NCBI RefSeq assembly: GCF_018977255.1
Contig: NW_024704750.1
Coordinates: 8,370,001-8,434,000, forward strand
Direction: 5' to 3'
Source of the DNA: Callorhinchus milii
Taxonomy: Eukaryota
DNA length: 64,000 bases
Both the position numbers and the translations under genes were made by a program. Shown piece after piece: positions 22,720-52,593 of this stretch. The stretch's first letter is position 1. Every line of letters begins with the position of its first letter. Under the pieces are notes generated by a model. It was not told where the DNA came from. It made no database searches and saw only the letters and a list, made by a program, of their open reading frames with translations.

Positions 22720-24050
22720 GACTGAGACGCCGCGGGCAGTGAAGTTATCTGAAGGGGGCCTACAGGTCTGGCTCAGACCTCGGCCTCGATTTATGTCGGT
22801 GCGGAGGCAGCGGGAGGGAGAGTGGGCGAAACCGAGCCCGGGGTCAGCCACCTCTGGCTGAAAAGACTCGACACCGGCGCCGCCACATGCGGAGGCCTGA
22901 CCACCCCCCCCCCCGTCCCCAACCACCCGCCGCCCACCCCGAGGCCCCGACACCGGGAACCCGGCCCCGGGCCCCTCACTCCCTCCCTCCCTCACTCACC
23001 GGACACCAGCCACTCTCCGCCATTGTTGGAGAACTCGATGGCGTTGACGCAGCCGAAGTGGCCGAGCAGGTCCTTCTTGAACAGGTTCTTGCAGCCGAAC
23101 AGCCGCTTCCGCTGGAACCGCTCCTTCAGAAAGCGGTCGCCGCTCACCGCCCGCCGCCCGAGGAACTCCATCAGCGACCGGTCGCCGCCGCCGCCGCGTT
23201 CCCTCATCCTCACCTTCCGCCGCCTTCACACACTCCTCATCCCCCGGGTGGCGGGGAGGGTGGGGGTGGGTGGGCTCGGCCTCGGGGTGTGAGTGAACAC
23301 GGCGCTGAGTAACAACGAGAGCCGAGCCGAGCTACTCCTCCTCCCCCCTCCCTCCCTCTCTCCCTGAACTGGAAGCAAAAAAAAACAGCAGCCGCTTAAA
23401 CGACACTTTGCATTCAAATATTTCAAGGCGTCTATTTTTCTGTTTCTTTCCCTCTCTCAGTGACTTGTCGGCAGATTCATTGCGACGTCTTCGGAATACT
23501 CAGCTGCAATGTTTCGTTCCTTCTTTTCACTCTCTCACACATTCCCCCTCTCTCTCTCTCTCTCTCACACACTCCCTCCCTCTTTGCTAGTGAACGCCCA
23601 CCAAATGTCACTCACTGGTTTGGGTGGTGGTGGTGAGTGGGGGAGTGAGGGAGTGGGGGAGGGAGTGAGTGAGCGTCACTCAATTTGGGGTTCAAAAATA
23701 CGTGACCTATTGTGATGGGTCACTCTTTTTTTTTAACTTAACTTATAGGTATATATAGATATATATGTGTCGATAACGAAAACAAAGACCGCTGCCCCGG
23801 GGTTTAAGAGTGTTTTTGCGACCTGCCGCGCTCTTGCTGCTGAATAGCGTCGCCGCTAACATTTCTTCTCCCCTGTTCTCGATCCCAACGTGGGAATGTA
23901 CAAGACCCGGAAAGTCCACTGAAGCCCACCTGGTGGGACCTAAGTAGAAACAAAGATAGACCGTTCGATCTCTCCTCACCCCACTCAACCCGCTTCCTCC
24001 TCCACACCGACTAAAGGCTTAATTTTAATTTTCTCTCCGTCTTGGAGAGG
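22720..24050. promoter_or_regulatory. CpG-rich promoter / first-exon region of DCAF5
   Basis: Marked GC and CpG enrichment at 22720-23360 and 23790-24050 in an AT-rich background, around exon 1. Confidence 0.7.
23000..23207 (-). CDS. DCAF5: DCAF5 exon 1, coding part (208 nt)
   Basis: ATG at 23207 with A at -3; MRERGGGGDRSLMEFLGRR...FQRKRLFGCKNLFKKDLLGHFGCVNAIEFSNNGGEWLVS; G|GTGAGT donor. The nine exons sum to 2946 nt in one open frame. Confidence 0.94.
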
Positions 24051-26333: not shown

Positions 26334-26930
26334 TTATTCTTTGAATTGCTGTTTGTTTAGCATTTTATGCAGAAATGCCTGAACTTTTGTCCAGAGGTCT
26401 TCTTGAGCAAATGAGTGTGCTTTGGTATTCCCTCCCCACAAGACAGCACTGTCAACCACAGCATGATAAGAGGCATAGCAAAATGGGAAAAATGGAGGAT
26501 CCAGAAAATGCCCAGCTCCTGGGTAACTGATAAGCTCATAGTTGTCCTTGCCATGTTCTCTCAGTCGTTTAATGGCTTCCTCCATATACAACTTGCTTTT
26601 CCAGTTCCTATCATCTTCCCCCACAACAAATAAGAAGTGTCCCTCAGCTTTTTCTATTGGAATTATACTGCTATGGTTAGCTTTGTCCATAGGATTATTC
26701 ATTACCTCATATATATCTGCAATTCCTGAATCTATGATCTGTAATTTCCTGGCATTAATACCCATACCAGTGAGCACCAGTTTATTTTTGTAGCACATTC
26801 CAAACAAAGCACTTGCATTGCATCCATTGATATTAATCACTGCTGCAACATGTGGCAAAAAGGTGGCTATCGACATAACCAAATCACCACCTTTCGATGT
26901 TCCTATTGCTCCAATTCCAGGACCTTTAAC
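26334..26930 (-). CDS. Type I acyl-CoA thioesterase copy A, exon 3 (BAAT_C catalytic domain)
   Basis: TTCCAG|GTT acceptor; triad motifs GTSKG, VGEDDRNW and GAGH intact; ends NKQQFKE* with no PTS1. Confidence 0.93.
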   Translation of the reverse strand, partial: VKGPGIGAIGTSKGGDLVMSIATFLPHVAAVININGCNASALFGMCYKNKLVLTGMGINARKLQIIDSGIADIYEVMNNPMDKANHSSIIPIEKAEGHFLFVVGEDDRNWKSKLYMEEAIKRLREHGKDNYELISYPGAGHFLDPPFFPFCYASYHAVVDSAVLWGGNTKAHSFAQEDLWTKVQAFLHKMLNKQQFKE

Positions 26931-31465: not shown

Positions 31466-31668
31466 TTTTGGATGCTGTCTTAAAAAGGTTACAGCTTCTT
31501 TAAAGTATTCCAAGTACAGGTTTGTCACAACTTTCGGGTGGTCATCATGACCAAAGTAGGCTAAAGCCAATGTAGTAAATCCACGGTTTGCCAAGAGACA
31601 GGCTCTCTGTTCAGATAGGCTACTTTGCAATGCATAGATATCAATTACCCCGGGAAAAGGACCATTTC
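31466..31668 (-). CDS. ACOT copy A exon 2 (203 nt)
   Basis: GACAG acceptor, AAA|GTGAGT donor; NGPFPGVIDIYALQSSLSEQRACLLANRGFTTLALAYF...LEYFKEAVTFLRQHPK. Confidence 0.93.
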
Positions 31669-35313: not shown

Positions 35314-35553
35314 CTTACAATACTGGGGCAAGTAATGCAACTGTGCTCAACACATGTTCAAAACATAAATACTTCTCACAACGTAGCAAAGCCCAGAATA
35401 TCACAGTGTAAATTACATCCGACAATTGCGAACCCTCTGAAGCAGCGACGGTCCATTCCCACCCAAATGAATTGACCTTTTCGGTCGCTGAGGGTTAGAG
35501 AGGACACCAAACCCAACAGATCCAACGGTGGCCGAGGCCTCACCAGCACTCAC

Positions 35554-36133
35554 CGGGCGGCACGAAGAGAGTCCCTCTGATGTTGCCCTCTCTCACTGGG
35601 ATCCTCTTCACTCCTTCCCTCATAAACCACCGCTCGTTGGTGCCCTTCGCCAAAGACTGGTCGAGCTGCTGCTCTCGGCTCCGGTGGCCATCGAACACCT
35701 CGATGTCTACGCACAGCGGAGAGTTGGCCACGTCCCTCTTCACCAGGCGGGTGAATGGCGTCCTGGGTATGAGTGACCAGAACAGCCCCATGGGCTCAAT
35801 CCCGGAGTAGTGTCCACCCAGGGACGGGGACCGGGACAGGTCCAGCTCTCCCCGCTCGTCAGCCTCGTAGTAGGCGAACGATTCGAAGGTCTCCCCCTTC
35901 TCGTCCGTGAGCGAAGCCTTCATCGTGACCTGTTGGAGCGGAGAGAGACCGTCCGCCCGGATCTGGAGCGGGTCATCAAACAGACACTTGGCGCTGGGGA
36001 GGAGGTGGACGGTCACGGCCCTCCCGGCGCGCTGACCCCGCGGGGCCGCGCTCCTGCACCTGCCGCTGAGCAGCGACAGAGCCGCCGCCGCCGCCGCCGC
36101 CGCCCGTCCCCCGGGTCTGCGGCACAGGTACAT
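35554..36133 (-). CDS. ACOT copy A exon 1 (580 nt): putative mitochondrial presequence plus N-terminal beta-sandwich domain
   Basis: ATG 36133 MYLCRRPGGRA8LSLLSGRCRSAAPRGQRAGR (Arg-rich, no acidic residues), then SLTDEKG...YEADERGELDL...LGG...EPMGLFWSL...RGTLFVPP; G|GTGAGT donor. Confidence 0.9.
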
Positions 36134-36188
36134 CCCAACCGCGATCAGCCTTCGCTGCCCACAGCTTTCCCGCCTTTCTGCACAGCCT

Positions 36189-36318
36189 CGACCGCGACAC
36201 CCGGACCACCCCCCGACCCCGCGACACCCCGACCCCGCGACACCCCGACCGACCCCGACACACCCCGACCGACCCCGCGACACCCCGACCCCGCGACACC
36301 CCGACCGACCCCCGGACC
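36189..36318. repeat. GC-rich minisatellite (ccccga / ccccgcgaca units) in the ACOT-A 5' leader
   Basis: Irregular 17-21 nt tandem units; the minus strand carries many GGGG runs. Confidence 0.85.
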
Positions 36319-36346
36319 GCCCTGGAGTTTTCCTTCTTTTTAAGAG

Positions 36347-36420
36347 TATATATACCTGACGCCCAGTAACGCCCGGGGGGGGGGGGGCGCCCCTCCCCCC
36401 TCCCCTCCTCCCGCGATTGG
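36347..36420 (-). promoter_or_regulatory. Putative core promoter of ACOT-A: CCAAT, GC-rich tract, TATA
   Basis: CCAAT on the minus strand at 36416-36420, G/C tracts at 36371-36413, TATATATA at 36347-36354; order and spacing fit a TSS near 36320. Confidence 0.55.
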
Positions 36421-36469
36421 CTCCTCATCTCGATGCCCGGGGCTGGGAATTCACAACCGCTACATGGAC

Positions 36470-37905
36470 GCGGTGCCATGTGCGGGGGGAGCGGGACCGT
36501 GGAGGGCTTTGAAGGTGAGGATCAGGATCTCCTGTGATGGGAAGCCGGTGGGGTCGGGCGAGGATGGGGGCGATAGGGTCGCGGAGCCCGGTGCGGGAGA
36601 GGACACGGGCGGCAGAGTTCTGGATGATCCGCAGCCGGTGGAGGGAGGGGTTGGGGAGGCCGACAAGCAGTGAGTTTGCATAGTCGAGCCTCGATGTAAT
36701 GAAGGCGTGCGGGAGGGTTTCGGCCGCCTGCGGTGTGAGTGAGTGGTGGAGCCGCGGAGGTGAGGGAAGGCAGAGCGGGTCATCGCACAGATGTGGGGTA
36801 GAAAGGATAGTTGAGGGTCAAACAAGACCCCAAGGTTCTGGACTGGCTTAGCAGGGCGGCGTGTGCAACTGTTAGCATAAGGTGTGCGAAATTAACATAC
36901 TAACAATGGGCCAAAATGGGTGAAGAAAGTCATGGAACATGTAATCATGGAGTCAGTACAAAGAAAGAGTGCTGAAGGAAACATATGATTGGATATGTTA
37001 ATAAAGGATTGTAACATATTCAACAACCATTGAATGGTGTAAGATACGGTATGTAAAATAACAGATTGTAAAAGCAAGACCAATGAGTGGATGTGCAAAT
37101 AACAATTGTAAATGACTGACGAGAGATTGGTGGAAGGTATAGAGAGAGTGGAATGAGAGTATAAAGATAGGGAGAACAAAAAATGGGGAGAAGGAAAAGA
37201 TCGGAGCAGCACGAGTGAAGACTTGATGGAAGATTGAAAGCTGAACATCTCGTCCCGCGGTAGCATTGCTTTGTTGTAACCCTACATGGTGTAACTTTAT
37301 AGAACCAGTAAAGTTTGGCTTAACAGATTTTACCTAAACGGAATGCTGGGTGACCTTTCTTGATATCTAACACAACCATGGATGGCGATGTTGTCAGCAC
37401 CTGAGTTGAGGAGGCGCTGACAGGAGCCAATCATGAGAGCCTCGGTTTTGTTGACATTCAACTAAAGAAAGTTAGCTCTCATCCAGGACTTGATGTCCGA
37501 CAAACATTCAGTCAGGACAGCAGTGGTCCTGGAGTCGAGGGCGGAAGCAGAGAGGTAGAGTTGGGTGTCATCCACATACATGTGGAAGTTGACCCCATGT
37601 CTGAGGATGATGTTACCAAGAGGGAGCATACAGATATTGAAGAAGGACCAAGGACAGAGCCTGAGGAACGCTGCACAAGACGGTCTGGGGATTAGAGGAG
37701 AAACCGTTTTGTGGAGATGAAGTGGAAGCGGTGTGAGAGGTACGATCTGAACTAGTCAAGGACAGAGCCATGAAAATTGAGGTGAGAGGAGAGGCGGTGG
37801 ATGAGGATACAGTGTTCAACGATGTCGAAAGCAGCAGAGAGGTCAAGGAGGACAAGCAGGCAGAGGGATCCCTGGTCGCAGATGGACAGAATGTCATTTG
37901 TCACT
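36470..37905 (-). mobile_element. L2 LINE fragment interrupted by a solo LTR
   Basis: FDPQLSFLPHI...ILILTFKALHG; the RT region at 37373-37905 is collinear with the 43835-44929 copy on both sides of the insertion. Confidence 0.88.
36870..37372 (+). mobile_element. Solo LTR (503 bp), probably Gypsy-like
   Basis: Termini TGTTAG...CTAACA, 4-bp target duplication CAAC (36866-36869 and 37373-37376), internal TATAAA near 37160 and AGTAAA near 37307; removing it rejoins the L2. Confidence 0.8.
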
Positions 37906-39435
37906 TCGCAAGTGGATTGTAGAAGATCAGGTACTCCATCTCAGTATTCCTCTCCAAAGGTGTTTTAACCCCTAGTCAGAAAAGCAATTTGAATTGTACG
38001 ATTGTGTGACATTTGTGCATCCGACACCACCCCCCCACATGTTCAACGTGTGTTCAACTCTGCGAGACTGCTTAGTGTCAAATTGTGATTTTTTTTTGGC
38101 CTGTAGAAAAAGTAACGGTTGAATCTTATTGTAAGAAAGGAAACAAGTCAGCAAATCATCTTGGTTCTTTCTTCCACTTGTTTTTCTTGCAATCCAACTA
38201 TCAGGAAATAGAAAAGGGATTTGGTTTCTGGTTGATAAAACGGTCAAAGAAGGTTACAAGATACATTATATTGTCTGCACATGTTCAACTTGCTCAATTT
38301 TTTCCAGTTAGGCTCCAGGTAACTTCACATCAATATTGTATTTATGTACCCATTTCTATCATGTAAAATAAAACACAAATTATTTTTCATTAAGATTTAT
38401 TGAAAATGGCAGTGTAAGTACAATAAACATATTTCTTCCCCTTCCGTACCTCAATACTAAATGGATCACTGTTTGGAATGAGTTTGCATACAATGCGGGT
38501 GAACTGTAAGCTTTTGTAAAGTGATTTGTAAACAGTCAATCCTGGACGCGTTGTCTCCATATCTCTGGCAATCCACTTGAATGCTGAATTTGTGGAAAGT
38601 GGAACCAAAGTGTGGAACCTGAACTGAGTTCCAGAGAAATTTACTGTTTACAAATTATTTATCAAATCTCACAATTTAAGCCCCAACATTTTTAAAATGG
38701 AAGGTTTCAAGACTATAAAGAGTTTTGAAGATCCTCTGCATAACAAAATACTTATTTCCCCCCAATTGCATGGTAGTATTTTCTAATTTTCTTGAATTGC
38801 CAATTTGGTCCATCCTCATTTAAAGGGAGTCTGATGTAGTGCACCAAATACTTCCTATACTGTAGTAAGGAAGGGCATAGAAGATTGCATTAACAACTTC
38901 AAACAAGAACATTTTAAAATTATTTGTTTCTTCACAGGTAACATATTCTATTTCAATCAATTTTTTTTAATATGCTAGAAAAATGGTACCACAGGCTCGG
39001 CAATACTCCTATATACTTACCATTCCTGGCATAATACTGATAAATAAAGTATTTACATACAATTTAAAAAAATTATTCAACAACTTTGCCTCCGAATTTG
39101 TATTTTCTAGAAATAAAACAGTTTAGTAACCAATATACAACAAAATCAGGAAGTGAGGATTTATTCATGCCCAGTTTATGCAAATTGCATCACGCCTGAA
39201 AACATCAACTCAATTGGCTCCAGGAATAGGTCTTGAGAGCAATTTGGACTGTTTAAGCCCCCGTTCATACTTCACATTTGTTGGTGAATTACTGACAGCC
39301 AAATATCCAGTATAAACACAGCATAAGAAGTATTTTGGGAGATCATTGCATTATTAGTGCTTTGAAGCTAAGCTAAACCAACGAAAATGGATCAGTAAAC
39401 TGAAATATTTTCTGAGAAGATATTTTCTATTGCTC

Positions 39436-39664
39436 GAAATGCAAAATACTGCAGATGCTGGAAATCTGAAACAAAAACAGAAGACGCTGGGAACACTCAG
39501 CAGGTCAGGCAGCATCTAGGGAGAAAAGAAAGTGAGTCAACGTTTCGGGTCCACGACTTTCGGGTTCTGACAAAGGATCGTGGACCCGAAACGTTGACTC
39601 ACTTTCCTTTCTCCATAGATGCTGCCTGACCTGCTGAGTGTTCCCAGTGACTTCTAGTTTTGTT
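39436..39664. mobile_element. Palindromic Penelope-like non-autonomous element with a hammerhead-like core
   Basis: Arms about 39470-39556 and 39578-39664 are near-perfect reverse complements; CTGACAA...GACCCGAAAC at 39567-39592. Confidence 0.75.
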
Positions 39665-39897
39665 CGCTAATGCTGTTATCGGTATTATAATGCTAGTTTC
39701 AGAAAATCATGGGGCAGTTTATTTTACTTATGGTATGACATAAAGTAGCATACAAATTACAGTGCTTCACGTTGTGAAATAATTAATGCCCAATATAAGA
39801 TTAAAATCAAATTACATATTCTGCTGAGTCAAGAGAAATCATGTTGAAATTGTTATTTAACCCATTGGTTTAACGTTGCTTAAAGCTACTCAGCAGA

Positions 39898-40494
39898 TTA
39901 GGTACATTCAACTTCACTTCCACATAAGTGCAAACGAAAGAAGTTTTGAATTTTTTGCCAAGAGTCTTGCTGAGCATGGGCATGATCTTTTGCATTTCCT
40001 CCTCCAACTATTGGAAGCCCAAAGAGTCTATCAATCCTGGCATAACAATATGGAGAACAAGGAGGTTCAATGTGGTGTCCAGCTCCCGGGTAGCTGAGGA
40101 GCTCATAGTTACTTTTGCCATGTTCTTTTAGTCTTTTTATGGCTTGTTCAGCAAAATAACTGCTTTTCCAGATCTTGTCATCCTCTCCTACCACAAATAA
40201 AAATTGCCCTTCAGCCTTTTCTATTGGGATAATGGTATCTTTGTTCTTTTCAGCCATGGGGTTTTCAAGTGATTCATATATATTCAGAATTCCTGTTTTT
40301 AAAAGAACAATTTTATCCATATCATAGGTCAGGCCACGCTTTGTCCAGTCTTTATAATGCAATTCAGATTCAGTATTTGCATTACAGCTGGAGATACAGA
40401 CGGTTGCCGCCACATTTGGTAGAAAGGTGGCCATTGACAAAGCCAGATCTCCTCCTTTTGATGATCCCAGCACTCCAATTCCAGGCCCCTTCAC
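39898..40494 (-). CDS. ACOT copy B exon 3 (catalytic domain)
   Basis: TAG|GTG acceptor; GSSKG, VGEDDKIW and GAGH intact; ends CGSEVECT* with no PTS1. Confidence 0.93.
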   Translation of the reverse strand: MKGPGIGVLGSSKGGDLALSMATFLPNVAATVCISSCNANTESELHYKDWTKRGLTYDMDKIVLLKTGILNIYESLENPMAEKNKDTIIPIEKAEGQFLFVVGEDDKIWKSSYFAEQAIKRLKEHGKSNYELLSYPGAGHHIEPPCSPYCYARIDRLFGLPIVGGGNAKDHAHAQQDSWQKIQNFFRLHLCGSEVECT

Positions 40495-40957
40495 CTATAA
40501 AAATCAAAATCTATTATTATAGTAATGTAATCATACCAATTGAAAAATTTAATGTACACAGCAACTAAGGTCACTTAAATTTTGAAAATAGCCCATTCAT
40601 TAAAATTTCCATTTATTCATTCGTATAAACAAGGTACTGTTAAATGGTGAATTTAATTTCACATCAACGTTTTTCTCCACATGACAAAGGTTTGAAATGT
40701 GAAGTATTCAGTGTTGATACTCTGACCTATTTTCACTCATACTCGTTAGGTATTTATAATGATTTATGAATATAACCTCGTAAAGCAACATTTAGGGTTT
40801 AAAAAACATTTAGGATGCTATTGAAATGCAATCTATTTTCACAAAATGAACTGAACCAATGTTTCAACACATTCATGCACTGGGCCACTGACTGGGAACC
40901 CCAACTTGAATATTTTGAGTCTGGCTCCTCCAGGTAGCAATTGTGCCAGAAACTCAC

Positions 40958-41160
40958 CTTTGGATATTTCTGCAGATAATTTGCAGCACTTTCAAAGTAT
41001 TCCAAATGAAATTCCTTCATGTTCATTGGTAAGTCTTCAAAACCAAAGTAAGGGAGAGCAAGAGCACAAAAGCCCCGGCTTGCCAGCAGACAGGATCGAA
41101 ACTCAGTTAAACCACCAACATCTCCAAACATATCTATCACTCCTGGAAAGGGCCCATCCC
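40958..41160 (-). CDS. ACOT copy B exon 2 (203 nt)
   Basis: TTAAG acceptor, AAG|GTGAGT donor; DGPFPGVIDMFGDVGGLTEFRSCLLASRGF...LEYFESAANYLQKYPK. Confidence 0.93.
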
Positions 41161-42020
41161 CTTAAGGTACAAGCAAAAACAAATTCACAATAAACCATTA
41201 ATGTGAAGAATGACAAGATTTTTCAAGTGGTAGTGAAAACATTTGGTCATCTACAGCAGGGGTCTCAAACTTTGTCTAGCTAAGAAAAAAACTATTACAC
41301 CTCCCTATGCTTTACTAAGGCAACACAAATAACTCAAAATACTCTGCAAGAATATGAGTAATAAAGTAGAAGGGCTTTGATCAATAGTTATAATAAAAGT
41401 AGGAGTGTCAAAAGTACAGTAAATCCTGTGAAGCACCTTGAGATTTTCTCCAAAGGGTAAGGCATTATATCGAATACAATGCTTCATTCATTCATTTATA
41501 TAATCTATTTATTGATTGTTTATTTAACTACTCCATATAGTAATTAACAGTTCAACTCATTCCTTAACCGTAAAGTGTAATAAAAATTGTTTGGATCATG
41601 AGCACATCCAGAGGTAATGTAATTAATTTATCGTTGATGGTTGTATGCTGTAGTCAAATTAATTTATACTTTTTGGCCTCACTCGAGGGGACACTGGCTT
41701 CGAGAAAAGGTTTTCTTTGATGGAAGAGTGAGAATAGTTTGTGGAGTAAACTTGAGTCACTGAGGTAAGTGATATCATGTACTTTTTGTGGGCAGTTTGA
41801 TGTCTGAGACATGCCGCAACCCATTGCCATTCTTAAAGAGATCCAAACTAATCTTTGCAATCCACCAAAACATCAAAATTTTCCTTGGCCTGAAATGTAG
41901 TTTCCAATCAATGATTCGAAGGAAGGCACCCTGTTTGCCGAGTTCAAGAAACTATTAGATGCAGGTTGGAACCAACCAAGGCTTAGGGAGCCCAGAGTGA
42001 TGTGTTCAGGTATTGCCGGA

Positions 42021-42130
42021 GTAATAATAATTCTTGACATTTGATATAGCGCCTTATCAAGTCGTCGCGACGTCTCAAATCGCTTCGAAGAATATACCGT
42101 AAAGTGAATCGACTGTACAATTTGCGGGCG
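42021..42130 (-). mobile_element. SINE 3' tail fragment
   Basis: (TTA)n tail and L2-type terminal segment; the sequence further 5' does not follow the usual SINE body. Confidence 0.6.
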
Positions 42131-42555
42131 GAGTATAACCGGCCAAAACTGCCGAGCTTGCAGCCGCGAGTATCGCCTGGCAAGCTTCCCATACCTTATC
42201 CAGTCAAGACCGCTTTACCAGTGAGGACCTTGGCTTGCAGGGTCAACAGCAGCCGGGAGTGGGAAGAATTCCCTACAAGTCCTGCCGAAGCAGCTCGGTC
42301 TGACATCAGGTGTGTCTTGGTGGTGGGTGGGTGGGTGGGTGGGGAGGGGTGGGGGTGGGGGAGTACTGTGGAGCCACCAGAGATTTTATGCCACCAACCC
42401 CTCGCCCTGGCCAGGTCACTCCCAGTTGCTACAACCTGCGCTTGAAAAGAGTCATAAATAGTATTTTTTAAAAAAAACACCACCACCACCACCACCAGCA
42501 GCAGCAGCAGCAGCGGGTTGTCCCGTGTGGTTTCCTGCCACAGGATCGGAGTTAC

Positions 42556-43147
42556 CTGGAGGCATAAACAATGTACCCCGGAGTCTCCCCTCCCTCAGTC
42601 TGATCTTCCTCAGCCCGGGCTTCGCGAACCACCGCTCCACCTTGTCCTTGGCCAGGAGTAGGCCCGGCAGCACCCCGGAGCCGCTGTGCCCGTCGTGGAC
42701 GAAGATCTCCACCCCCATGGGGCAGGTGGCGGGGTCCTTGGCTATCAGCCGCTGGTAGGGTCTCTCCATGGCGGCGGGGGAGAGCGACCACAGGAGCCCC
42801 ATGGGTTCCACGCCCACGTAGTCGCCACCCAAAGACGGGGCCCTCCGCAGGTCCACCACCCCCCGGGAGTCGGCCTGGTACTGGGCGCAGGAGTCGAAGA
42901 AGTGGCCCCGGTCGTTGGACACCAGGACCCGCAGCGTGACCGGCTGCCGGGGGCACAGGCCCGTCACCTCGATGTGGATCTCCTCGTCCGTCAGGCCGGA
43001 CTTCGGTGTGGCCGACAGCTTGACCGAGTCTTCTCGGCAGGGCCTCCCCGGGGCGGCCGTCGAGTGAGGCCGACAGCCGCCGCCGCCGCCGCCGCCGAGC
43101 AAAGAGAGCGGCCGCCGCGCTCCCGCCTTCAGCAGCGCCGACAGCAT
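42556..43147 (-). CDS. ACOT copy B exon 1 (592 nt) with putative mitochondrial presequence
   Basis: ATG 43147 MLSALLKAGARRPLSLLG7CRPHST; YQADSRGVVDL...LGG...EPMGLLWSL...RGTLFMPP; G|GTAACT donor; CpG island. Confidence 0.9.
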
Positions 43148-43834
43148 CACTGAGCGCTTCACCCCGAGCACCAGAGCAATCGATCCCCGAGTCAGTCAAT
43201 CAGTCAGTCAGTCGCTGCTACAACCGAAAGCACAACCTTTACCCCTCTCTCTTCCCCCTCACACACAACTCCTGGGGATCTGAACTGAACCAGTCTCTTT
43301 GCACCCACTTTTTACCCCCCGCAGTGCTTTCAGTAATCCTTGCACCTGAGTTAATGGCACCTTTCTGTTTCTTTTCTTGCCTGAAACCGAAGGAGTTGAG
43401 AACGATAAGCGCAAAGGACGGTGACGAAGACGGAGAGCGCCAATGGCTTTTGTCGTATTTAGACCTTCCGGTTTCGTTTGGATCGGACGCCTGCGATCGC
43501 GGAATTAGCCACGAGTAAACTTGCATTTATAGTGCGCCCCTTCACACAGGATAGCCCGAATGGGTCGGGTGGTCCCAGCTGGACAAGCAGCGGGTTTCAG
43601 CTGGTTAGACTCCAGCAGTACCCCAACGCACACTCTAGGGTCCCCAGGCCTCGCCTCTTGTCAACTTGGGCCCAATACTTTCCGGAATTAGATAAGCAGG
43701 ATGTGTCCCTCCAGGGAGAATGTGCATTCCATGCCAATGGTCTATCTCTGGGATTTCCACATGTAGATGGGATACTAGGAAATCTCAGCTTGGTTTGGAT
43801 ACGCTTAAGTGCTGTGATGGGTTTCTGTGTGTAT

Positions 43835-44929
43835 CAACAACAACACGATTACATTTGTATAGCGCCTTTCACTTTGGGAGGACATGCCAAGACAGTCAGT
43901 GTTTCGGACTTGAGCTGGGGAATGGGATTGGGGAGTGTGGAGAACGGGGAGGTAAGGCGAGTGATGAAAAGCACGGTCAAAGAGGAGGTTCTTGAGATGG
44001 GTCTTGAAGGAGGCAAGAGTGGGCGAGGTGGAGGAACTGCAGGATGGAGATTCAAAGAGTGGGGGCAGAGTGGTGAAGCAGGCCTGCTGAGCAGAGGGCG
44101 TGGTCAGCATGGTAAGGGGGTTAGGTCGCAGAGGTAGGGGGGAGTGAGGCCATGGAAGGCTTTGAAGGTGAGGACCAGGATCTTGAACTGTACCCTCTGT
44201 GTGATGGGAAGCCAATGGAATCGGGCGAGGATGGGGATGATAGGGACACGGAACCTGTTGCGGGAGAGGACGCGGGCTGCAGAGTTTTGGATGATCTGCA
44301 ACCTATGAAGGGAGGAATTGGGGAGGCCGAAAAGCAAGGAGTTTGCGTAGTCAAGCCTGGATGTAATGAAGGCGTGTATGAGGGTTTCGGCGGCCTGTGG
44401 TGATTCAGTGGCAGAGCCAGGCAATGTTGCGGAGGTGGGGGAAGGCAGAGTGGGTCATGGCACGGATGTGGGATAGAAAGGATAGCTGAGGGTCAAACAA
44501 GATGCCAAGGTTTCAGACTGGCTTAGTAAGGTGGAGTGTGTATCCATGGATGGTGATGCTGTCAGAGCCTGAGGTGTGGAGGCACTGACGGAAACCAATC
44601 AGGAGAGCCTCGGTCTTGCTGACGTTCAACTGAAGAAAATTAGCTTCATCCAGCACTTGACGTCTGACAGACATTCTGGCAGGACAGCAGTGGTCCTGGC
44701 GTCAAGGGTGGAGGCAGAGAGGTACAGTTGGGTGTCATCTACATACATGTGGTAGTTGACCCCCATGTCTGTGGATGATGTCACCAAGAGGGAGCACATA
44801 GATATTGAAGAGGAGGGGACCCAGGACAGAGCCCTAAGGAATGCCACACGAGACAGTGCGGGGCCTAGAGGAGAAACCTTTTGTGGAGATGAAGTGGAGG
44901 CAGTGTGATAGGTATGATCTGAACCATTC
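43835..44929 (-). mobile_element. L2 LINE 3' portion
   Basis: [10 protein letters not shown] (RT), AAETLIHAFITSRLDYANSLL...IIQNSAAR...HWLPI...FKILVLTFK; (TTG)n tail at 43835. Confidence 0.92.
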
Positions 44930-45249
44930 AATAATAATAATAATAATCCTTGCATTTGATATAGCACTTTTCACGTCTTCGAGACGTCTCAAAGTGCTTC
45001 ACAGAATATACTGTAAAGTGAATTGACCGTATATTTGTGGGCGAAACGCAGCAGCCAATTAAGCACAGCAGTTCCCACAAACAGTCATGGATTGAAAATG
45101 ACCAATTTATTATTGTTTTGTTGTTTTGGAGGGATTATTATCAGGCGTGTGGAGTAAGGAAACTTGTCCAAGGTTTCGCCCTGCCTGGAATAGAACCCAG
45201 GTGTCTCGCTTGCAAGGCGAGTGCTCTAACCATTGAGCTACAGGACTCC
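44930..45249 (-). mobile_element. Full-length tRNA/Deu SINE, short variant, inserted in the L2
   Basis: Reverse-complement homolog of 34988-35313; L2 sequence resumes at about 45250. Confidence 0.9.
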
Positions 45250-45445
45250 GCTAAGGACAGAACATGAAGATCAGACACCCAGCTTATCAATAAAAAGAGC
45301 TACAGGATTCTGTTGGAAAGCATAAAAGTGCATCAGGACAGGGTAAATTAATCAAATATCTCAAACTAAAAACATTATTCCCTGAACATTATTGCTTTTT
45401 AAAACATCCTGACTGTACCTGCTTTTGATTCAACGCACAGTAGGT

Positions 45446-46710
45446 TTATAATTTGCTCTTTGCAGTGATCTGATGGTTAAGAACTTTTTGTAGAAATTGT
45501 TGCATTTTGGACCACAAATCCTTCTGAGCAAAAGAATGCGGCTTGGCATGACCTCCCCACAAAATGTTTGCTTTTACAACAAAGTGATAGGAAGAAAAAC
45601 AGAATGGGAAAAATGGAGATTCCAAACAATGGCCAACTCCTGGATAACTGAGAACCTCATAGTTATCTTCGCCATGTTCTCTCAGTCTCTTTACGGCCTC
45701 CTCAGCATATCGTTTGGTGTTCCAGTTCTTATCTGAAACACTGGTCCACGCCTTCATTACCTCAAGGGTAGACTACGGGAACTCTCTCCTCGTCGGCCTT
45801 CCCGGCACCTCCCTCCACAAGCTGCAGGTCATTCAGAACTCTGCAGCTCGTGTACTGTCCGGCACCAGGCTTCGGGACCACATCACTCCCACCCTCGCTC
45901 GCCTCCACTGCCTCCCCATCCCCCAGAGGATCGAATTCAAGATCCTCATCCTCACCTACAAGGCCATTCACAGCCTTGCACCCTCCTACCTCTCCGACCT
46001 ACTATCCCCCCACGTACCTGCCCGTACCCTCCATTCCTCTGGCTCCGGTCTGCTCCACATCCCCCGCCCTAACTGCCCTATCATCGGTGGCCGGGCCTTC
46101 AGCATCTCAGCCCCTAGGCTCTGGAACTCCATCCCCCAGTGCCTTCGCCGCCTCCTCCCTTTCCTCCTTCAAGGCCGGGCTCAAGACCTTTCTCTTCAAC
46201 CGTGCCTTCAGCTCCCCTCTTGACTCTCTACCCCCTCCTCGCTCCCTCCCTTCCCTCCTCACTCCCTCCCTTCCCTCCCCTTACCCTGACCATTTCCCCC
46301 CTGCTCGGGTCCCGACCCAACTGTCCAGCGCCTTGGGACGTCCTCCCGATGTGAAAGGCGCTCTCTAAATGCAATCTTGTTGTTGTTGTTGTTATCATCT
46401 TCTCCAACCACAAACAGGAACTTTCCCTCTGCTTTTTCTATTGGGATGATAATGTGCTTGTTGGCTTCATCCATGGGATCATTCAGTGCATCTGAAACAT
46501 CCAATAATCCTGCATCTATAACCCTTGTTTGTTCTGCATTATAATTCAAGCCAGACAGTATCATTTTATCTTTGTAATAAATGTCATAGTATTTGCATTG
46601 CATCCACCGATAGTAACAACTGGTGCCACATGTGGTATAAAGGTAGCCATTGACAGAACTAGATCTCCACCTTTTGATATTACTATTGCTCCAACTCCAG
46701 GACCTTTAAC
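45446..46710 (-). pseudogene. ACOT copy C exon 3, disrupted
   Basis: TTCCAG|GTT acceptor at 46710; nucleophile motif altered to VISKG; frameshift near 46588 giving TGA at 46561-46563; L2 insertion at GEDD/KNW; distal part has GVGH and ends ITAKSKL*. Confidence 0.88.
45734..46391 (+). mobile_element. 5'-truncated L2 insertion with a 5-bp target-site duplication
   Basis: [19 protein letters not shown]...[18 protein letters not shown]; (TTG)n tail; flanked by TTATC at 45729-45733 and 46392-46396. Confidence 0.93.
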
Positions 46711-47577
46711 CTGGAAGATTTTTTAAAAAGAAAACATTGATACACTTAATAAAATCAACGTGCACACCTAGAAACAAAATGTAAATTTTGTCCCATTTCT
46801 TCAGCTCCCGCCCAGATCCTATACAATCATTCCTTTTATCGTGTATTCTAACCCACTGATTTAATCTAATGAAAATTTATGTATAAATGTTCCCTACTAT
46901 CAAAATCATCATGCAAAATTACAGTATTAATTTATCTTCACATCTCCACCGATCAAACCAGTCTTGCTCCTACCCACAACTTTCCCTCCATCTCTTCTTG
47001 AAGCCGGCACCCTAGTCCTAGAATGTTGCTAGTTGTTCTTATCTGAATCCTCTGCAATACATTTTAAGAGTTAACAATTATATGACTGATAGACATATAC
47101 AGATAGTTTATTTTGAAGATGGATGTTGGGTTTGGCAAGGACGTAATTTTCAGGGTTAAGTATTTTGGACACAAAAGGTAAAGAGAATTCCACTTTGCAC
47201 ACATTACTATATCCAAAGAAATTGTCAACACAACACAAATGTGGGGGAAATATTCTGCAAGCTATTTAAGTACCATAGAACTATTACACAACTGGTCATT
47301 TCATTCATGTATTTTAAGCAGCTCTTCTTTAAGATGTACCATTTATTACAGGTACAGCAAAGTACTACAGCAATATATTTAAAGTACTGAATGAAACAAA
47401 TAGTAATGACAGATACTTCAGTGATATTTAGTGGTTATGAAATGATTAAATAGCACCAATAAAATAAATGATTCATTATATCTAAAACTAAATGCATTGT
47501 ATGTTTTTTATACATGATCTGCGTGTCAAGTGAATGCTTGATTTTACAACATCTATTTTACTTTTAAAAAAACTTGC

Positions 47578-47780
47578 CTTTGGATACTGCCTCAAGAAAT
47601 TCACAGCTTCTTCAAAGTATTCTAGATTAAGTTTGGTGGTATCCTTTGGAAGATTATCAAAGCCAAAGGAGGCTAAAGCCATTGTAGTGAACCCGTGGCT
47701 TGCCAAGAGACTGGCTCTGCAGTCAACCAGCCCACCAATTGACCCATACAAATCAACAACCCCTGGAAATGGGCCTTCAC
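47578..47780 (-). pseudogene. ACOT copy C exon 2 (203 nt, open frame, GC donor); no exon 1 of its own
   Basis: TAG acceptor; [30 protein letters not shown]...[16 protein letters not shown]; AAG|GCAAGT donor. Confidence 0.85.
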
Positions 47781-48209
47781 CTATTAGATTTAAAGCACAC
47801 CAGTTACTTTCACGATGAAATATATCATTGAAATTAGAAACTGTACCAAAACTCAAATTTCTACAAAATACTGTACTCCATATCAGTTGTGCCTTTATAA
47901 GATTATGAAGTTATACCACGATTTCCTGAGCCTTTTATAACCCAAGAAATAAAATCTGTAAGAACATAAAACCTGATAAACTAAATGTTCCCATTATCCC
48001 AATTATTTCATCCTAGGTATTTTTAAAAACTATAACATTATTTTCTAAATGATTAATTTTGATGTTGATTGAGGATCATATCGCTAAAGGAGTCCCAAGT
48101 TCGATTTCAGGATCCTGAAACAATATAAAACATTCAGAGCATTAAAATGAATACAGTATTACATTCATAATGATCACTGAATAAGTAAATTATTGATTCA
48201 ATAACAACT

Positions 48210-48370
48210 TTTAAGAGAGAAGTAGATAATTATTTGGGGCGGATAGGTTTGCAGGGCTATGGGGAGAGTGCAGGGGAGTGGGATTGAATTGGATAGTTCT
48301 TTTCAAAGAGCTGGCACAGAATAATAGGACAAATGGCCTCCTTCTGTGCTGTATAATTCTATGATTATGA
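48210..48370 (+). mobile_element. CR1 3' tail fragment
   Basis: agggctatggggagagtgcaggggagtggga...aaatggcctccttctgtgctgtataattctatgatt; a similar remnant lies at about 62920-63052. Confidence 0.7.
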
Positions 48371-48589
48371 TACAATATATTAAAACCCAAATTTCGATAC
48401 AAATTGCCAATTCACTGTCAGCGAAGCTGGTTGATGGAACTTTTCAGGGTTTTCCTTGAGACACAGTTTTCAACTGCCTTAATACAGTATTTAGTCAAGT
48501 GTACCAAATTGTGAAATGTATGAGTTACAAAAGGATAGTTCTGAAAAAGATTCTCTTGCAATAAAGGTTTGAGCAGCACCCTTGTTTTA

Positions 48590-49269
48590 CATGACATCCG
48601 TGCCATGACCCGCTCTGCCTTTCACCACCACCGTAACATCAACCGGCTCCGCCACTATCTCACATCGCAGGCTGCCGAGACCACCATACACGCATTCATA
48701 ACATCCAGACTTGACTATGCAAACTCCATGCATGTTTGCCTCCCCAACTCCTCCCTCAATAGGCTGCAGGTCATCCAGAACTCTGCAGCCCGTGTCCTCT
48801 CCCGCACCAGGCTCCGTGATCCTATCACCCCAATCCTCCCCCGATTCCACTGGCTCCTCATCACACAGAGAATGCAGTTCAAGATCCTGGTCCTCATCTT
48901 CAAAGCTCTCCATGGCCTAGCTTCCACCTACCTCTGTGATCTCCTAAGCTCCTACCAACCTCGCTCAGCGAGCTCCGTTCCTGCTTCATGTCCCCCACCA
49001 CCATTGGTGGGCGGGCCTTCAGCCACTCTGCCCCCACCATCTGGAACTCTATCCCACAGGCTCGGCGCCTTGACCCCTCCCTTGCCTCCTTCAAGACTCG
49101 TCTCAAAACCCTTCCCTTCGACCATGCCTTTGATCACCCTCCTTCCCTACTTGCTTTCCACTCTTCCCGATCCCGACCTCCAGCTTGGGTCCAAAACACT
49201 GATTGTCCAGTGCCTTGGGGATGTCCTCCTGACATGATGGCACTATACAAGTGTAATTTTGTTGTTGTT
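48590..49269 (+). mobile_element. L2 LINE 3' fragment
   Basis: AAETTIHAFITSRLDYANS...VIQNSAAR...FHWLLI...FKILVLIFKALHG; (TTG)n tail. Confidence 0.92.
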
Positions 49270-50204
49270 TGGTTCTTACAGGCAGATCTGCAGTACTCCA
49301 AGGTACTACTGGTGACAAACCAGCCAGTTTCACTCATCGGTGATATTGGTGTCTTGGCCAACAATGCTCCAGATAAATCAATCATTCGTTTTAATGGTTG
49401 TTTGCAGGATATTGCTGTTGTACAAATTGACTGCCATCAGGAATTTGTGAAATGCTTTGAAATGTTCGACAAATACAAGGACTATGGTTATGCACAACAA
49501 TTGTTTATTTGCAGTTTAATTTTTGGTAATTCGAAATCAACAAAAATCACAAGACATCAAATCTCTGAATGATCTATCCTCCTTGACCCATTAAACCTTT
49601 GCATAAAACCTTTCAATGCTCAAATTAAAAATCTAGCATTAGAGGACCAATGAAAGAGTAATTTGGTTAATTGAATTTAAAAACAAATAATAGGGCCAGT
49701 TTTTTTTCCCCAGTACCTATATACTCTTGCATTCCTAATTACCAACAGTAAATTTGAATTAATTCAAACAAACCAGAACTATAGAAGACATTCACATAAA
49801 ATATAATGAACATTCAACTATATTTAGGTTTTTCCTCCAGTTACATAGTATGGATCAAAAAATTAAAGTTAAAATTGTAGAAAGAGGAAATTGTAATGTG
49901 AATAGCCAATACAAATTTTTGTACATTAAATCAAAGAGGTATTAAACAATTGTCCTGTCTTCCAGCCAAATATTTGTTTGTACAAGTAAGAATTTTGTTA
50001 CACAACAGGATGCTAGTGGATTTTATTAAGATTAAGGCACAGTAACACGATTCAACTTATATGAACTGATAGTGTAGAACAAATTATATTTGCATAGCAC
50101 CTTTCACAGAGTCAGCTGAGCAGAGGGAGCTGACAGGTCAATAAGTACAAAACATAACTCAATTCAGTTTACTCATAGTTTACTCATCTGCTTGTTGAGA
50201 TGTT

Positions 50205-50765
50205 TCAATAAAAATGCCATAGTCTTTGACCAAAGTCCTCCTGAGCCCGTGAATGTGGCTCCATTTTCCCTCCCCACAACACAACATGCCTTGCCAACCG
50301 ATGATAAGAGGCATTGCAGAATGGAAAATATGGAGGTTCTATGAGGTGCCCAGCCCCCGGATAAGTGAGAATTTCATAGTTGTTTTTGCCACTTCCTTTG
50401 AGCTGATTTGCAGCTTGCTCAGCATAACATGCAGTTTGCCAATTCTTATCATCTTCGCCAACAACAAACAAAAAGTGCCCCTCCGCTTTTTCTATTGGGA
50501 TGACACAGTCTTTATTGGCTTCATCCATGGGATCATCCATTGAATCCGAGATATCAATAATATTTGAACTGGTAAATCTTATCCGCTCAGCGGAAAAACC
50601 CAAGCCCGGAAGTGTCATGCTTTTATAATGCAAATTTCCTAAAGTGTTTGCATTACATCCACCAATAGAAATAGCAGCCACCACATGTGGTATAAAAGTG
50701 ATCATTGATAGAACTAGATCAGCTCCTTTAGATGTTCCTATAGCTCCAACTCCAGGGCCTCTAAC
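50205..50765 (-). CDS. ACOT copy D exon 3; triad intact, C-terminus frameshifted (homologous frame ends SKL* at 50173)
   Basis: TTTTAAG|GTT acceptor; GTSKG, VGEDDKNW, GAGH; after AQED the frame reads FGQRLWHFY*, while the shifted frame reads WSKTMAFLLKHLNKQMSKL*. Confidence 0.85.
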   Translation of the reverse strand, partial: VRGPGVGAIGTSKGADLVLSMITFIPHVVAAISIGGCNANTLGNLHYKSMTLPGLGFSAERIRFTSSNIIDISDSMDDPMDEANKDCVIPIEKAEGHFLFVVGEDDKNWQTACYAEQAANQLKGSGKNNYEILTYPGAGHLIEPPYFPFCNASYHRLARHVVLWGGKMEPHSRAQEDFGQRLWHFY

Positions 50766-50904
50766 CTTAAAAATAAAGACATTTTTAAAAAAATTATTTA
50801 AACAGTTGGCAAAAATACACAACTTCCCAGCACCCCAACTGGTATCCCTTTAACTTTTTTGGATCAGCCAACTGTTTCATTTATGTGATTGCAGTGCATC
50901 TTAC

Positions 50905-51107
50905 CTTTGGATACTGCCTCAAGAAATTCACAGCTTCCTCAAAATATTCCAGATTGAAGTCATTAATTTCCTTTGGAAGATCATCATAGCCAAAATAGCC
51001 TAAAGCCAGTGTAACAAATCCATGATTTGCAAATAGACAAGCCCTGTGTTCAATTAGCCCACCGACTGACCCATACATATCAACAACCCCTGGAAATGGA
51101 CCATCAC
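50905..51107 (-). CDS. ACOT copy D exon 2 (203 nt)
   Basis: CTAG acceptor, AAG|GTAAGA donor; [30 protein letters not shown]...[16 protein letters not shown]. Confidence 0.93.
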
Positions 51108-51570
51108 CTAGTAAATTAAAACACAACATATTGCAAATTATTTGTCAGTAGTTAAAGTTTGGAAACATCATTTCAATAGTCATATTCAGAAAGATTAGAT
51201 GATTGAATCAAAATATATAGATATTGATTCAATATAAATATATATTGATATACACATTTGTACATATAATAATCCTTGCATTTGATATAGCTCATCATCG
51301 TGTTGTGGAAACATCTCAAAGCACTTCATAGGATATATTGTAACTGCATTTTGTGGGCGAATGAATGATTCAATATATACATTCGCCGGCGTTTTCTAAA
51401 ATGAAGCACGTACACAATACCTGTGGAAACTTCACTTTAAAATAAGAAACTTGGGACATCTACTCCCTCTCCATTTGCAGAGTTTTTAAAAGAACCGGGT
51501 CCAAGAATTGCAGATGAACACAAAACAACCTATGTTGGAACTGCAAACGCTGCCATTCTGACAATTTTAC

Positions 51571-52144
51571 CGGGTGGCACGAAGAGAGTCCCTCTGATGT
51601 TGCCCTCTCTCACTGGGATCCTCTTCACTCCTTCCCTCATAAACCACCGCTCGTTGGTGCCCTTCGCCAAAGACTGGTCGAGCTGCTGCTCTCGGCTCCG
51701 GTGGCCATCGAACACCTCGATGTCTACGCACAGCGGAGAGTTGGCCACGTCCCTCTTCACCAGGCGGGTGAATGGCGTCCTGGGTATGAGTGACCAGAAC
51801 AGCCCCATGGGCTCAATCCCGGAGTAGTGTCCACCCAGGGACGGGGACCGGGACAGGTCCAGCTCTCCCCGCTCGTCAGCCTCGTAGTAGGCGAACGATT
51901 CGAAGGTCTCCCCCTTCTCGTCCGTGAGCGAAGCCTTCATCGTGACCTGTTGGAGCGGAGAGAGACCGTCCGCCCGGATCTGGAGCGGGTCATCAAACAG
52001 ACACTTGGCGCTGGGGAGGAGGTGGACGGTCACGGCCCTCCCGGCGCGCTGACCCCGCGGGGCCGCGCTCCTGCACCTGCCGCTGAGCAGCGACAGAGCC
52101 GCCGCCGCCGCCGCTCGTCCCCCGGGTCTGCGGCACAGGTACAT
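51571..52144 (-). CDS. ACOT copy D exon 1 (574 nt), nearly identical to copy A exon 1
   Basis: ATG 52144 MYLCRRPGGRA6LSLL...RGTLFVPP; G|GTAAAA donor. Confidence 0.9.
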
Positions 52145-52465
52145 CCCAACCGCCAACTTCAGATGTCCAGTTCCCCCAAAACCGCAGTAAATATGGCGTC
52201 GGAGTGACCGCTTGACCAGTGAACGCCGCCGGGCGTTATGGGAGATGGAGTTCGCCAGGTCTGGGAGAAACTTCACCTCCCAGCAGCTCCCGCTCCCCCT
52301 CCCCCGCCGCGTCACCGGAGGCCCCCCCCACCCCGAGGCGGTGCTGGTCACGTGTTGACCGCTCGCTCGGTGTTCTGGGCTCCTCTCGACGGCCTTGAAG
52401 CATCTCTTTATCCCTCAAGATTAAGAAAATGTGCCAATGAACTCCATTTGCACACTTATCCCTTT

Positions 52466-52593
52466 GGGAGGATTCCCGTGGGAGGCCTCAGTGGGAGGAT
52501 GCCGGTGGGAGGCCTCAGTGGGAGGATGCCGGTGGGAGGCCTCAGTGGGAGGATGCCGGTGGGAGGCCTCAGTGTGAGGATGCCTGTGGGAGG
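52466..52593. repeat. 27-bp minisatellite, about 5 copies, upstream of ACOT-D
   Basis: Unit gtgggaggatgccggtgggaggcctca; seen in the ORF track as (GRMPVGGLS)n. Confidence 0.92.

Follow-up and report, generated by a model that had tools for sequence, protein, structure and literature searches.

Why do two neighbouring genes whose catalytic parts have drifted far apart keep an almost identical first exon? This question was raised by a stretch of 64,000 nucleotides (nt) from the elephant shark Callorhinchus milii (assembly GCF_018977255.1, contig NW_024704750.1, positions 8,370,001 to 8,434,000), hereafter called the window. Its minus strand holds, within 26334-52153, three complete three-exon genes of type-I acyl-CoA thioesterases (ACOT), here named A, B and C, and a broken copy D. 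An earlier note on this DNA, which described A, the intervening B and C and had no D, suggested that gene conversion restricted to one exon keeps exon 1 of A and C alike. We consider it highly probable that A and C are ancient tandem paralogs in which recurrent non-allelic gene conversion overwrites exon 1, while exons 2 and 3 have long escaped it. The mosaic was seen directly in the window and in public sequencing runs, and across 13 species the tree of exon 1 is opposite to that of exons 2-3; these observations and the per-exon divergence at synonymous sites (dS) bear out the earlier suggestion.

When the window was compared with itself by BLAST, a match of 591 columns with 98.6% identity was found between 35552-36142 and 51569-52153, and no other pair was equally long and alike. 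The alignment gave exactly the differences that had been read by eye: two synonymous bases, CCG/CCA (35558 versus 51575) and CGG/CGA (36098 versus 52115), and an indel of 6 nt in a poly-alanine run (8 versus 6 Ala). The perfect run between A and C measured 539 nt (35559-36097). The earlier note had also placed the limits of identity correctly: the shared sequence begins 9 nt ahead of the ATG and runs through the first 2 nt (GT) of intron 1. The poly-alanine difference is real in the window but is not fixed between the genes, because other records give 7 for A and 8 for C. Database records have 8 or 7 residues in A and 6 or 8 in C, a collapsed contig of run X2 (see below) has 5, and across records the lengths are common to A and C.

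By the Nei-Gojobori method, exon 1 of A and C had a dS of 0.014 (2 of 149 synonymous sites) and a nonsynonymous divergence (dN) of 0. The values were 1.32 and 0.23 in exon 2, and 1.24 and 0.32 in exon 3 (Fisher p about 1e-34). This is the contrast that the earlier note had predicted, and exons 2-3 did not turn out equally similar at synonymous sites. The flanks of A and C, intron ends included, scored like shuffled sequences in three of the four comparisons; the upstream flank gave a marginal signal (score 28, reached by 1 of 200 shuffles). Exon 1 of B is very different, as had been noted, with 58-59% DNA identity to that of A and C. Scaled to the value of about 1.3 in exons 2-3, which are near saturation, the dS of 0.014 would roughly suggest that exon 1 was last homogenised within a few million years (My). 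A dN of 0 is what strong purifying selection or co-evolution, keeping exon 1 alike without any exchange of DNA, would produce, but the synonymous sites are equally alike, which already contradicts such an account. Moreover, between species exon 1 of A and C has diverged by 26%, no more slowly than orthologs have in exons 2-3. We regard this explanation as extremely unlikely.

The identity could also be thought an artefact of assembly collapse or polishing, as gene C does carry a single-base error in the window and contigs of short reads cannot phase a whole exon of 580 nt. We compared 4 of the 24 listed public runs, which span three studies, as contigs on 45300-52500; all run figures are among the rows listed. 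In run X1, a contig of 1194 nt spans the intron, exon 1 and upstream flank of C, and its single other letter is the A-type base at 52115. In run X2, exon 1 forms one contig (51576-52153) that ends at the identity edges, with a depth of 20.5 versus 10.2-15.4 for the unique neighbours of C, as is expected of two identical copies collapsed together. In run X9, which was only guessed to be RNA (no run holding the locus is recorded as RNA), exon 1 is joined to exon 2 of C with no other letter. A different exon 1 in one copy, the sign of collapse that the earlier note had named, did not appear in these contigs, within their limit in phasing. Other database versions of the A and C proteins also share exon 1, and the same pattern was found in 12 further species. 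The contigs argue against collapse, and an artefact is in our opinion hardly credible.

The base error lies near the end of gene C. One additional base (G or A) was present at 50231-50233 in all four runs, and because of this the frameshift of C is an assembly error and the protein ends in QMSKL. Record P0095 of this protein ends in SKL, and the matching record P0002 inherits the truncated tail. The reading of C as a truncated gene was rejected on the evidence of the four runs and P0095. The missing base probably sits at a site with two alleles.

The same mosaic was found in other cartilaginous fishes. From two homolog searches and one cluster look-up, full-length chondrichthyan proteins were collected, 14 of A type and 28 of C type, partial and isoform records being left out; 13 species had both types, 8 only C and 1 only A. 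Outside the window annotated proteins only were compared, cut at the exon edges of the window. In the exon-1 core, A and C of the same species were 98.8% identical (94.8-100, 17 pairs from 13 species) versus 73.6% across species. The corresponding values were 63.8% versus 63.7% in exon 2 and 52.8% versus 53.4% in exon 3, and outside exon 1 the two proteins differ at roughly 40% of positions. The nearest neighbour of A was the C of its own species in 12 of the 13 species for exon 1, and in none of them for exons 2 and 3. The exon-wise trees with other chondrichthyans, which had been proposed as a check, grouped exon 1 by species and exons 2-3 by gene. In the former, A pairs with C species by species and B forms a separate clade; in the latter, there is a clade A (support 100/96) and a clade C (93/76), with the elephant shark branching first in both. 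The approximately unbiased test rejected an A clade for exon 1 (p 2e-6), as well as the union of own-species A and C for exons 2-3 (p 1e-4 and 2e-5). In a comparison of 14 A and 19 C proteins, the two types had no residue in common at 27 positions, every one of which is located in exons 2-3. Since these exons follow the gene and not the species in chimaera, sharks and rays alike, and the chimaera-shark split is dated to about 400 My ago (PMC12344233, PMC5519329), the duplication is at least about 400 My old.

An internal Met before the sandwich domain is present in all elasmobranch A and C rows and in two lungfish rows, and is replaced by Arg in both elephant-shark genes; judging from the aligned proteins, this is a derived change copied to both genes. 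In skates the 5' edge is shifted, with A starting MCQ(P/A)W and C starting MLCG, and the C-type stretch takes in more of A in Rhinoraja than it does in Leucoraja.

Several observations weigh against recurrent conversion, besides the limit in phasing. Outside the elephant shark the comparison is at the protein level, and homogenisation of synonymous sites is known from this genome only. In 3 of the 12 other species (Leucoraja, Hemiscyllium and Chiloscyllium plagiosum), A and C have identical exon-1 cores, and therefore the core alone leaves room for one exon shared by gene models. A of Stegostoma is closer to A of Rhincodon than to C of Stegostoma. For eight C-bearing species (five myliobatiform rays, sawfish, Amblyraja and Chiloscyllium punctatum) the searches yielded no A-type protein, owing to loss or to the limits of the search. 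Clade C was supported by just 93/76 (95/82 in a wider tree). Copy number varies, with extra C copies in several sharks and skates and with D here; therefore there is room for unequal crossing-over. Finally, the A-C identity is shared by no intron (2 identical intron bases), unlike that of published mammalian pairs.

One alternative is that other species have a single physical exon 1 spliced to two cassettes of exons 2-3, or borrowed in gene models, and that the elephant-shark pair is a one-off recent duplication. The identical cores, the protein-level comparison and the position of D, downstream of C without an exon 1 of its own, would be in line with this. However, the A and C cores differ by 1-8 residues in 9 of the 13 species, although in two of the nine (Scyliorhinus and Mustelus) the differences may be allelic, because the records come from different contigs or assemblies. 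In Leucoraja and C. plagiosum the start of the leader differs between A and C, and the A and C records with listed names are not named as isoforms of one gene. We think this alternative very unlikely. Somewhat more room, still little, is left for repeated unequal crossing-over, by which the shared exon would be renewed as the array expands and contracts through crossovers within exon 1. The duplicated C of several sharks and skates and a copy without exon 1 (D) suit such a process, but a single crossover would join the promoter and intron of one gene to those of the other, and here both flanks are gene-specific. The bodies of A and C are orthologous throughout the clade, and two crossovers within 590 nt would be conversion in effect.

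We prefer recurrent non-allelic conversion because synonymous sites are homogenised, both flanks are gene-specific and the pattern is repeated in each lineage, an argument also made in PMC2720389. In all likelihood, a DNA break in one exon 1 would sometimes be repaired from the other copy 16 kilobases away, and the tracts would end at the exon edges, where homology is lost. Conversions of exons 2-3 were then probably removed by selection for different catalytic domains and targeting tails, until divergence kept these exons and the repeat-filled introns from pairing; the 27 exclusive positions and the SKL tail of C only are the basis for this step. Exon 1, on the other side, is probably interchangeable, so its identity would be self-sustaining: it would stay above the pairing threshold because its conversion continues. 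As a predicted consequence, the two enzymes would have the basic leader and the N-terminal sandwich in common, joined to different catalytic domains.

The earlier note had described the homogenised part as the presequence and the N-terminal domain. The tract does coincide with exon 1, but in a structure model of C it takes in, beyond the leader and the sandwich (residues 41-169), another two strands (176-191), and thus it follows the exon and not the edge of the domain. The shared leader is likely a mitochondrial presequence, as it has 8 Arg/Lys and no Asp/Glu in 36-38 residues, with a predicted local distance difference test score (pLDDT) below 50 at residues 1-34. Once the base error is set aside, C ends in SKL, as do most C-type proteins and none of the 14 A-type ones; from this C-terminal tripeptide, C is predicted to carry a peroxisomal targeting signal of type 1 (PTS1).

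Why exon 1 in particular was caught can be answered only tentatively. It may have been singled out as a CpG island, with breaks concentrating there if recombination goes to promoter-like features. PRDM9 of the elephant shark is described as without SSXRD, not fast-evolving and undetected in testis RNA (PMC5519329). Where PRDM9 is inactive, breaks are reported to fall on features of this kind, and many mammals show this in spite of having PRDM9; most placentals have active promoter-like hotspots, whereas in humans these are depleted (10.1101/2023.11.17.567540). The first exons of A, B and C are all CpG-island-like, with an observed/expected CpG ratio of 0.82-0.88 versus 0.10-0.37 elsewhere. An island is not sufficient, and this counts against the idea, because exon 1 of B is one and is yet unconverted. 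The earlier note had held that the high GC of exon 1 would fit GC-biased conversion, or that a CpG island alone could explain it. The second option agrees with the three islands. The first was rejected as not needed, because the G+C content at third codon positions is 0.90 in the unconverted exon 1 of B and only 0.83 and 0.82 in A and C (substitutions unpolarised).

Breaks at the island could account for the capture of this one exon on two occasions, in sharks and in mammals. Walrus ACOT4 (residues 1-150) was used as the query in a mammalian search, in which 120 of 392 matches were listed and 44 rows were picked for same-species pairs. The two halves of exon 1 of ACOT4 and ACOT6 were 94.7/91.6% identical within species (12 pairs) versus 86.7/85.2% across (44 rows), and those of ACOT6 and ACOT1/2 were 96.6/97.5% (6 pairs) versus 85.5/86.7%. 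In exon 3, ACOT4 and ACOT6 gave 57.3% within and 57.6% across; mammalian exons 2-3 had no within-species excess and grouped by gene. By these comparisons, placental ACOT1/2, ACOT4 and ACOT6 appear to show the same homogenisation of exon 1, looser than in sharks (about 93% versus 99%). The tree of exons 2-3 separates the mammalian ACOT clade (96/89) from shark A, C and D (100/97); therefore, to the extent that these exons show it, the duplications behind the two cases were separate. In the same tree, B has orthologs in lungfish, amphibians and sauropsids.

The mammalian part has weaknesses as well. Matches were chosen by their likeness to one exon 1, ruminants were over-represented, one row was mislabelled and one had an aberrant exon 3. 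ACOT4 of ruminants and carnivores keeps its own FWRFL patch within the homogenised exon 1, which is likely an island held by selection. This patch (proteins P0201-P0311) was found overwritten in pig, whereas in manatee, beaver and sifaka other paralogs have acquired it. In humans, whose promoter-like hotspots are depleted, an eye count gave about 25 differences between ACOT2 and ACOT4 among 152 residues of exon 1, more than in any of seven other-mammal pairs; this would favour the idea of breaks at the island, but it is one case and weak. In birds, lizards, amphibians and lungfish no homogenisation of exon 1 was seen in same-species pairs, which were mostly B-type versus ACOT1-type and so made no real test. 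Among 6215 pairs from 113 non-chondrichthyan rows, none had exon 1 above 90% and exon 3 below 80%.

It is a still more tentative idea that exon 1 of ACOT is a recurring conversion trap, made of a break-drawing promoter CpG island and an interchangeable module, and locked independently in cartilaginous fishes (for about 400 My) and in placentals. The shared leader and sandwich would then evolve as one unit on several catalytic domains, with a tightness set by the recombination landscape of each lineage.

Long-lived partial conversion is already known, and the case of A and C is unusual in being so old, in having edges that are sharp at the exon with no identity in the intron, and in recurring in mammals. 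SIGLEC5/14 are paired receptors that differ in output and have one module held in common by partial conversion; they are much younger and driven by ligand or pathogen recognition. CCR2/CCR5, likewise much younger and ligand- or pathogen-driven, share a module through partial conversion (cited in PMC2720389). The mammalian pairs BMP8A/B, DDX19A/B and TUBG1/2 have been in concerted evolution for more than 100 My and are neighbouring paralogs with a mosaic of homogenised and diverged parts and conserved boundaries in every lineage (PMC2720389). They differ in age (more than 129 My versus about 400 My here), and the screen that found them required a similar intron, whereas the tract of A and C is one exon. 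Their copy number is constantly two, an argument against unequal crossing-over, whereas that of shark A and C varies. The cause of persistence of partial conversion beyond 100 My is stated there as unclear.

In TLR1/TLR6 and avian TLR1A/B and TLR2A/B, too, conversion has affected a portion of the coding sequence in many species, among both birds and mammals, after duplications estimated at 270-359 My (PMC3125219). They are immune receptors with heterodimer partners, whereas A and C are metabolic enzymes with a tract bounded by the ATG and the splice donor. Chondrichthyan LeftyA/LeftyB are a tandem pair with lineage-wise grouping ascribed possibly to conversion, with one pair per major lineage (three events) versus species-level homogenisation of one exon beside orthologous other exons here (PMC12344233). 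A newt paper (10.1101/2021.03.25.437018) was set aside as not a close comparison. Our literature search, with most subscription papers and supplements of genome-wide surveys outside its scope, found no report of gene conversion in ACOT genes. ACOT was absent from the five searched supplement files of PMC2720389, and the single match for ACOT4 concerns a human ACOT1 deletion (PMC13755911). The pair A and C is older than the vertebrate cases read for comparison, has sharp edges and the non-converting neighbour B as a control, and the phenomenon occurs twice in one family; explanations by selection and by recombination landscape can therefore be tested against each other. In practice, whole-gene ACOT trees and names mix two histories, short reads of exon 1 cannot be assigned to A or C, and targeting leaders and start codons (e.g. 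the elephant-shark Met-to-Arg change) spread between enzymes of likely different compartments.

By their domains and by the modelled fold of C, we conclude that A, B and C belong to the type-I acyl-CoA thioesterase/BAAT family, beside human ACOT2 and ACOT4. All three contain PF04775 (N-terminal; residues 53-182 in A) and PF08840 (C-terminal), well over the curated Pfam cut-offs, and the motifs GxSKG, GEDD and PGAGH of the Ser-Asp-His triad. Database proteins of C. milii are 99-100% identical to the cluster genes of the window. The model of C (P0095, pLDDT 90.7) has a beta-sandwich and an alpha/beta-hydrolase fold as in ACOT2 and ACOT4, and its top Foldseek matches were 3HLK and 3K2I, the human ACOT2 and ACOT4 (E about 1e-56, template modelling score 0.86, 47% identity). 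These human proteins share family and fold with the shark genes, and mammalian paralogs are also homogenised in exon 1; by exons 2-3, however, shark A, C and D are a chondrichthyan expansion and not one-to-one orthologs of ACOT1/2/4/6. The features are listed in Table 1.

Table 1. Positions of the ACOT cluster features in the window
Feature	Position	Strand	Remarks
Gene A, exon 1 coding part	36133-35554	minus	
Gene A, homogenised tract (9 nt upstream, exon 1 coding part, donor GT)	35552..36142	minus	
Gene A, exon 2	31466..31668	minus	AG/GT ends, open frame
Gene A, exon 3	26334..26930	minus	catalytic Ser, Asp, His motifs; end QQFKE, no PTS1
Gene B, exon 1	42556..43147	minus	ancient paralog outside conversion; CpG-island-like, third-position G+C 0.90
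Gene B, exon 2	40958..41160	minus	
Gene B, exon 3	39898..40494	minus	
Broken copy D, exon 2	47578..47780	minus	GC donor; own exon 1 absent
Broken copy D, exon 3	45446..46710	minus	frameshift near 46585; high-copy repeat of about 658 nt inserted (45734-46391); end SKL
Gene C, exon 1 coding part	52144-51571	minus	
Gene C, homogenised tract (9 nt upstream, exon 1 coding part, donor GT)	51569..52153	minus	covered by contigs of four runs, one joining both C flanks
Gene C, exon 2	50905..51107	minus	one contig of run X9 links it to exon 1
Gene C, exon 3	50173..50765	minus	catalytic motifs; one base missing near 50232; true end QMSKL (PTS1-type)

Searches of the genome (G000) found no further cluster copy on this contig and only the A and C copies of the shared exon 1, and PF04775 gave three first exons on the contig. 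Copy D, between B and C and downstream of C, carries exons 2-3 only (47780-45446), and no remnant of exon 1 was found before it in 47781-50170 (best E 2.3). Over its frameshift, three of the four listed contigs agree with the window and have no gap. Exon 2 of D is nearer to C (dS 0.48 versus 1.15), and the 3' part of its exon 3 is nearer to A (199/279 nt) than to C (186/277 nt). D is possibly an old mosaic, or a former alternative cassette behind exon 1 of C. A joint of D to that exon was absent among the joints listed, which repeats dominated, and this gives no verdict.

Elsewhere in the genome, one more gene with PF04775 and PF08840 was found at C5:68169557-68178188 (L006-L008, L014, L016 and L017); it has many short exons, unlike the three-exon genes of the cluster. 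The minus strand of the window also holds, at 3063-23330, a neighbouring multi-exon gene with an open last exon of 628 residues and a CpG-rich first exon near 22750-23330, which presumably resembles DCAF5 (two of its internal open reading frames had no Pfam match). Four other open reading frames had no Pfam match. Upstream of A (36195-36320) and of C (52480-52590), short GC-rich tandem repeats were found beyond the converted tract, and these are mutually unrelated.

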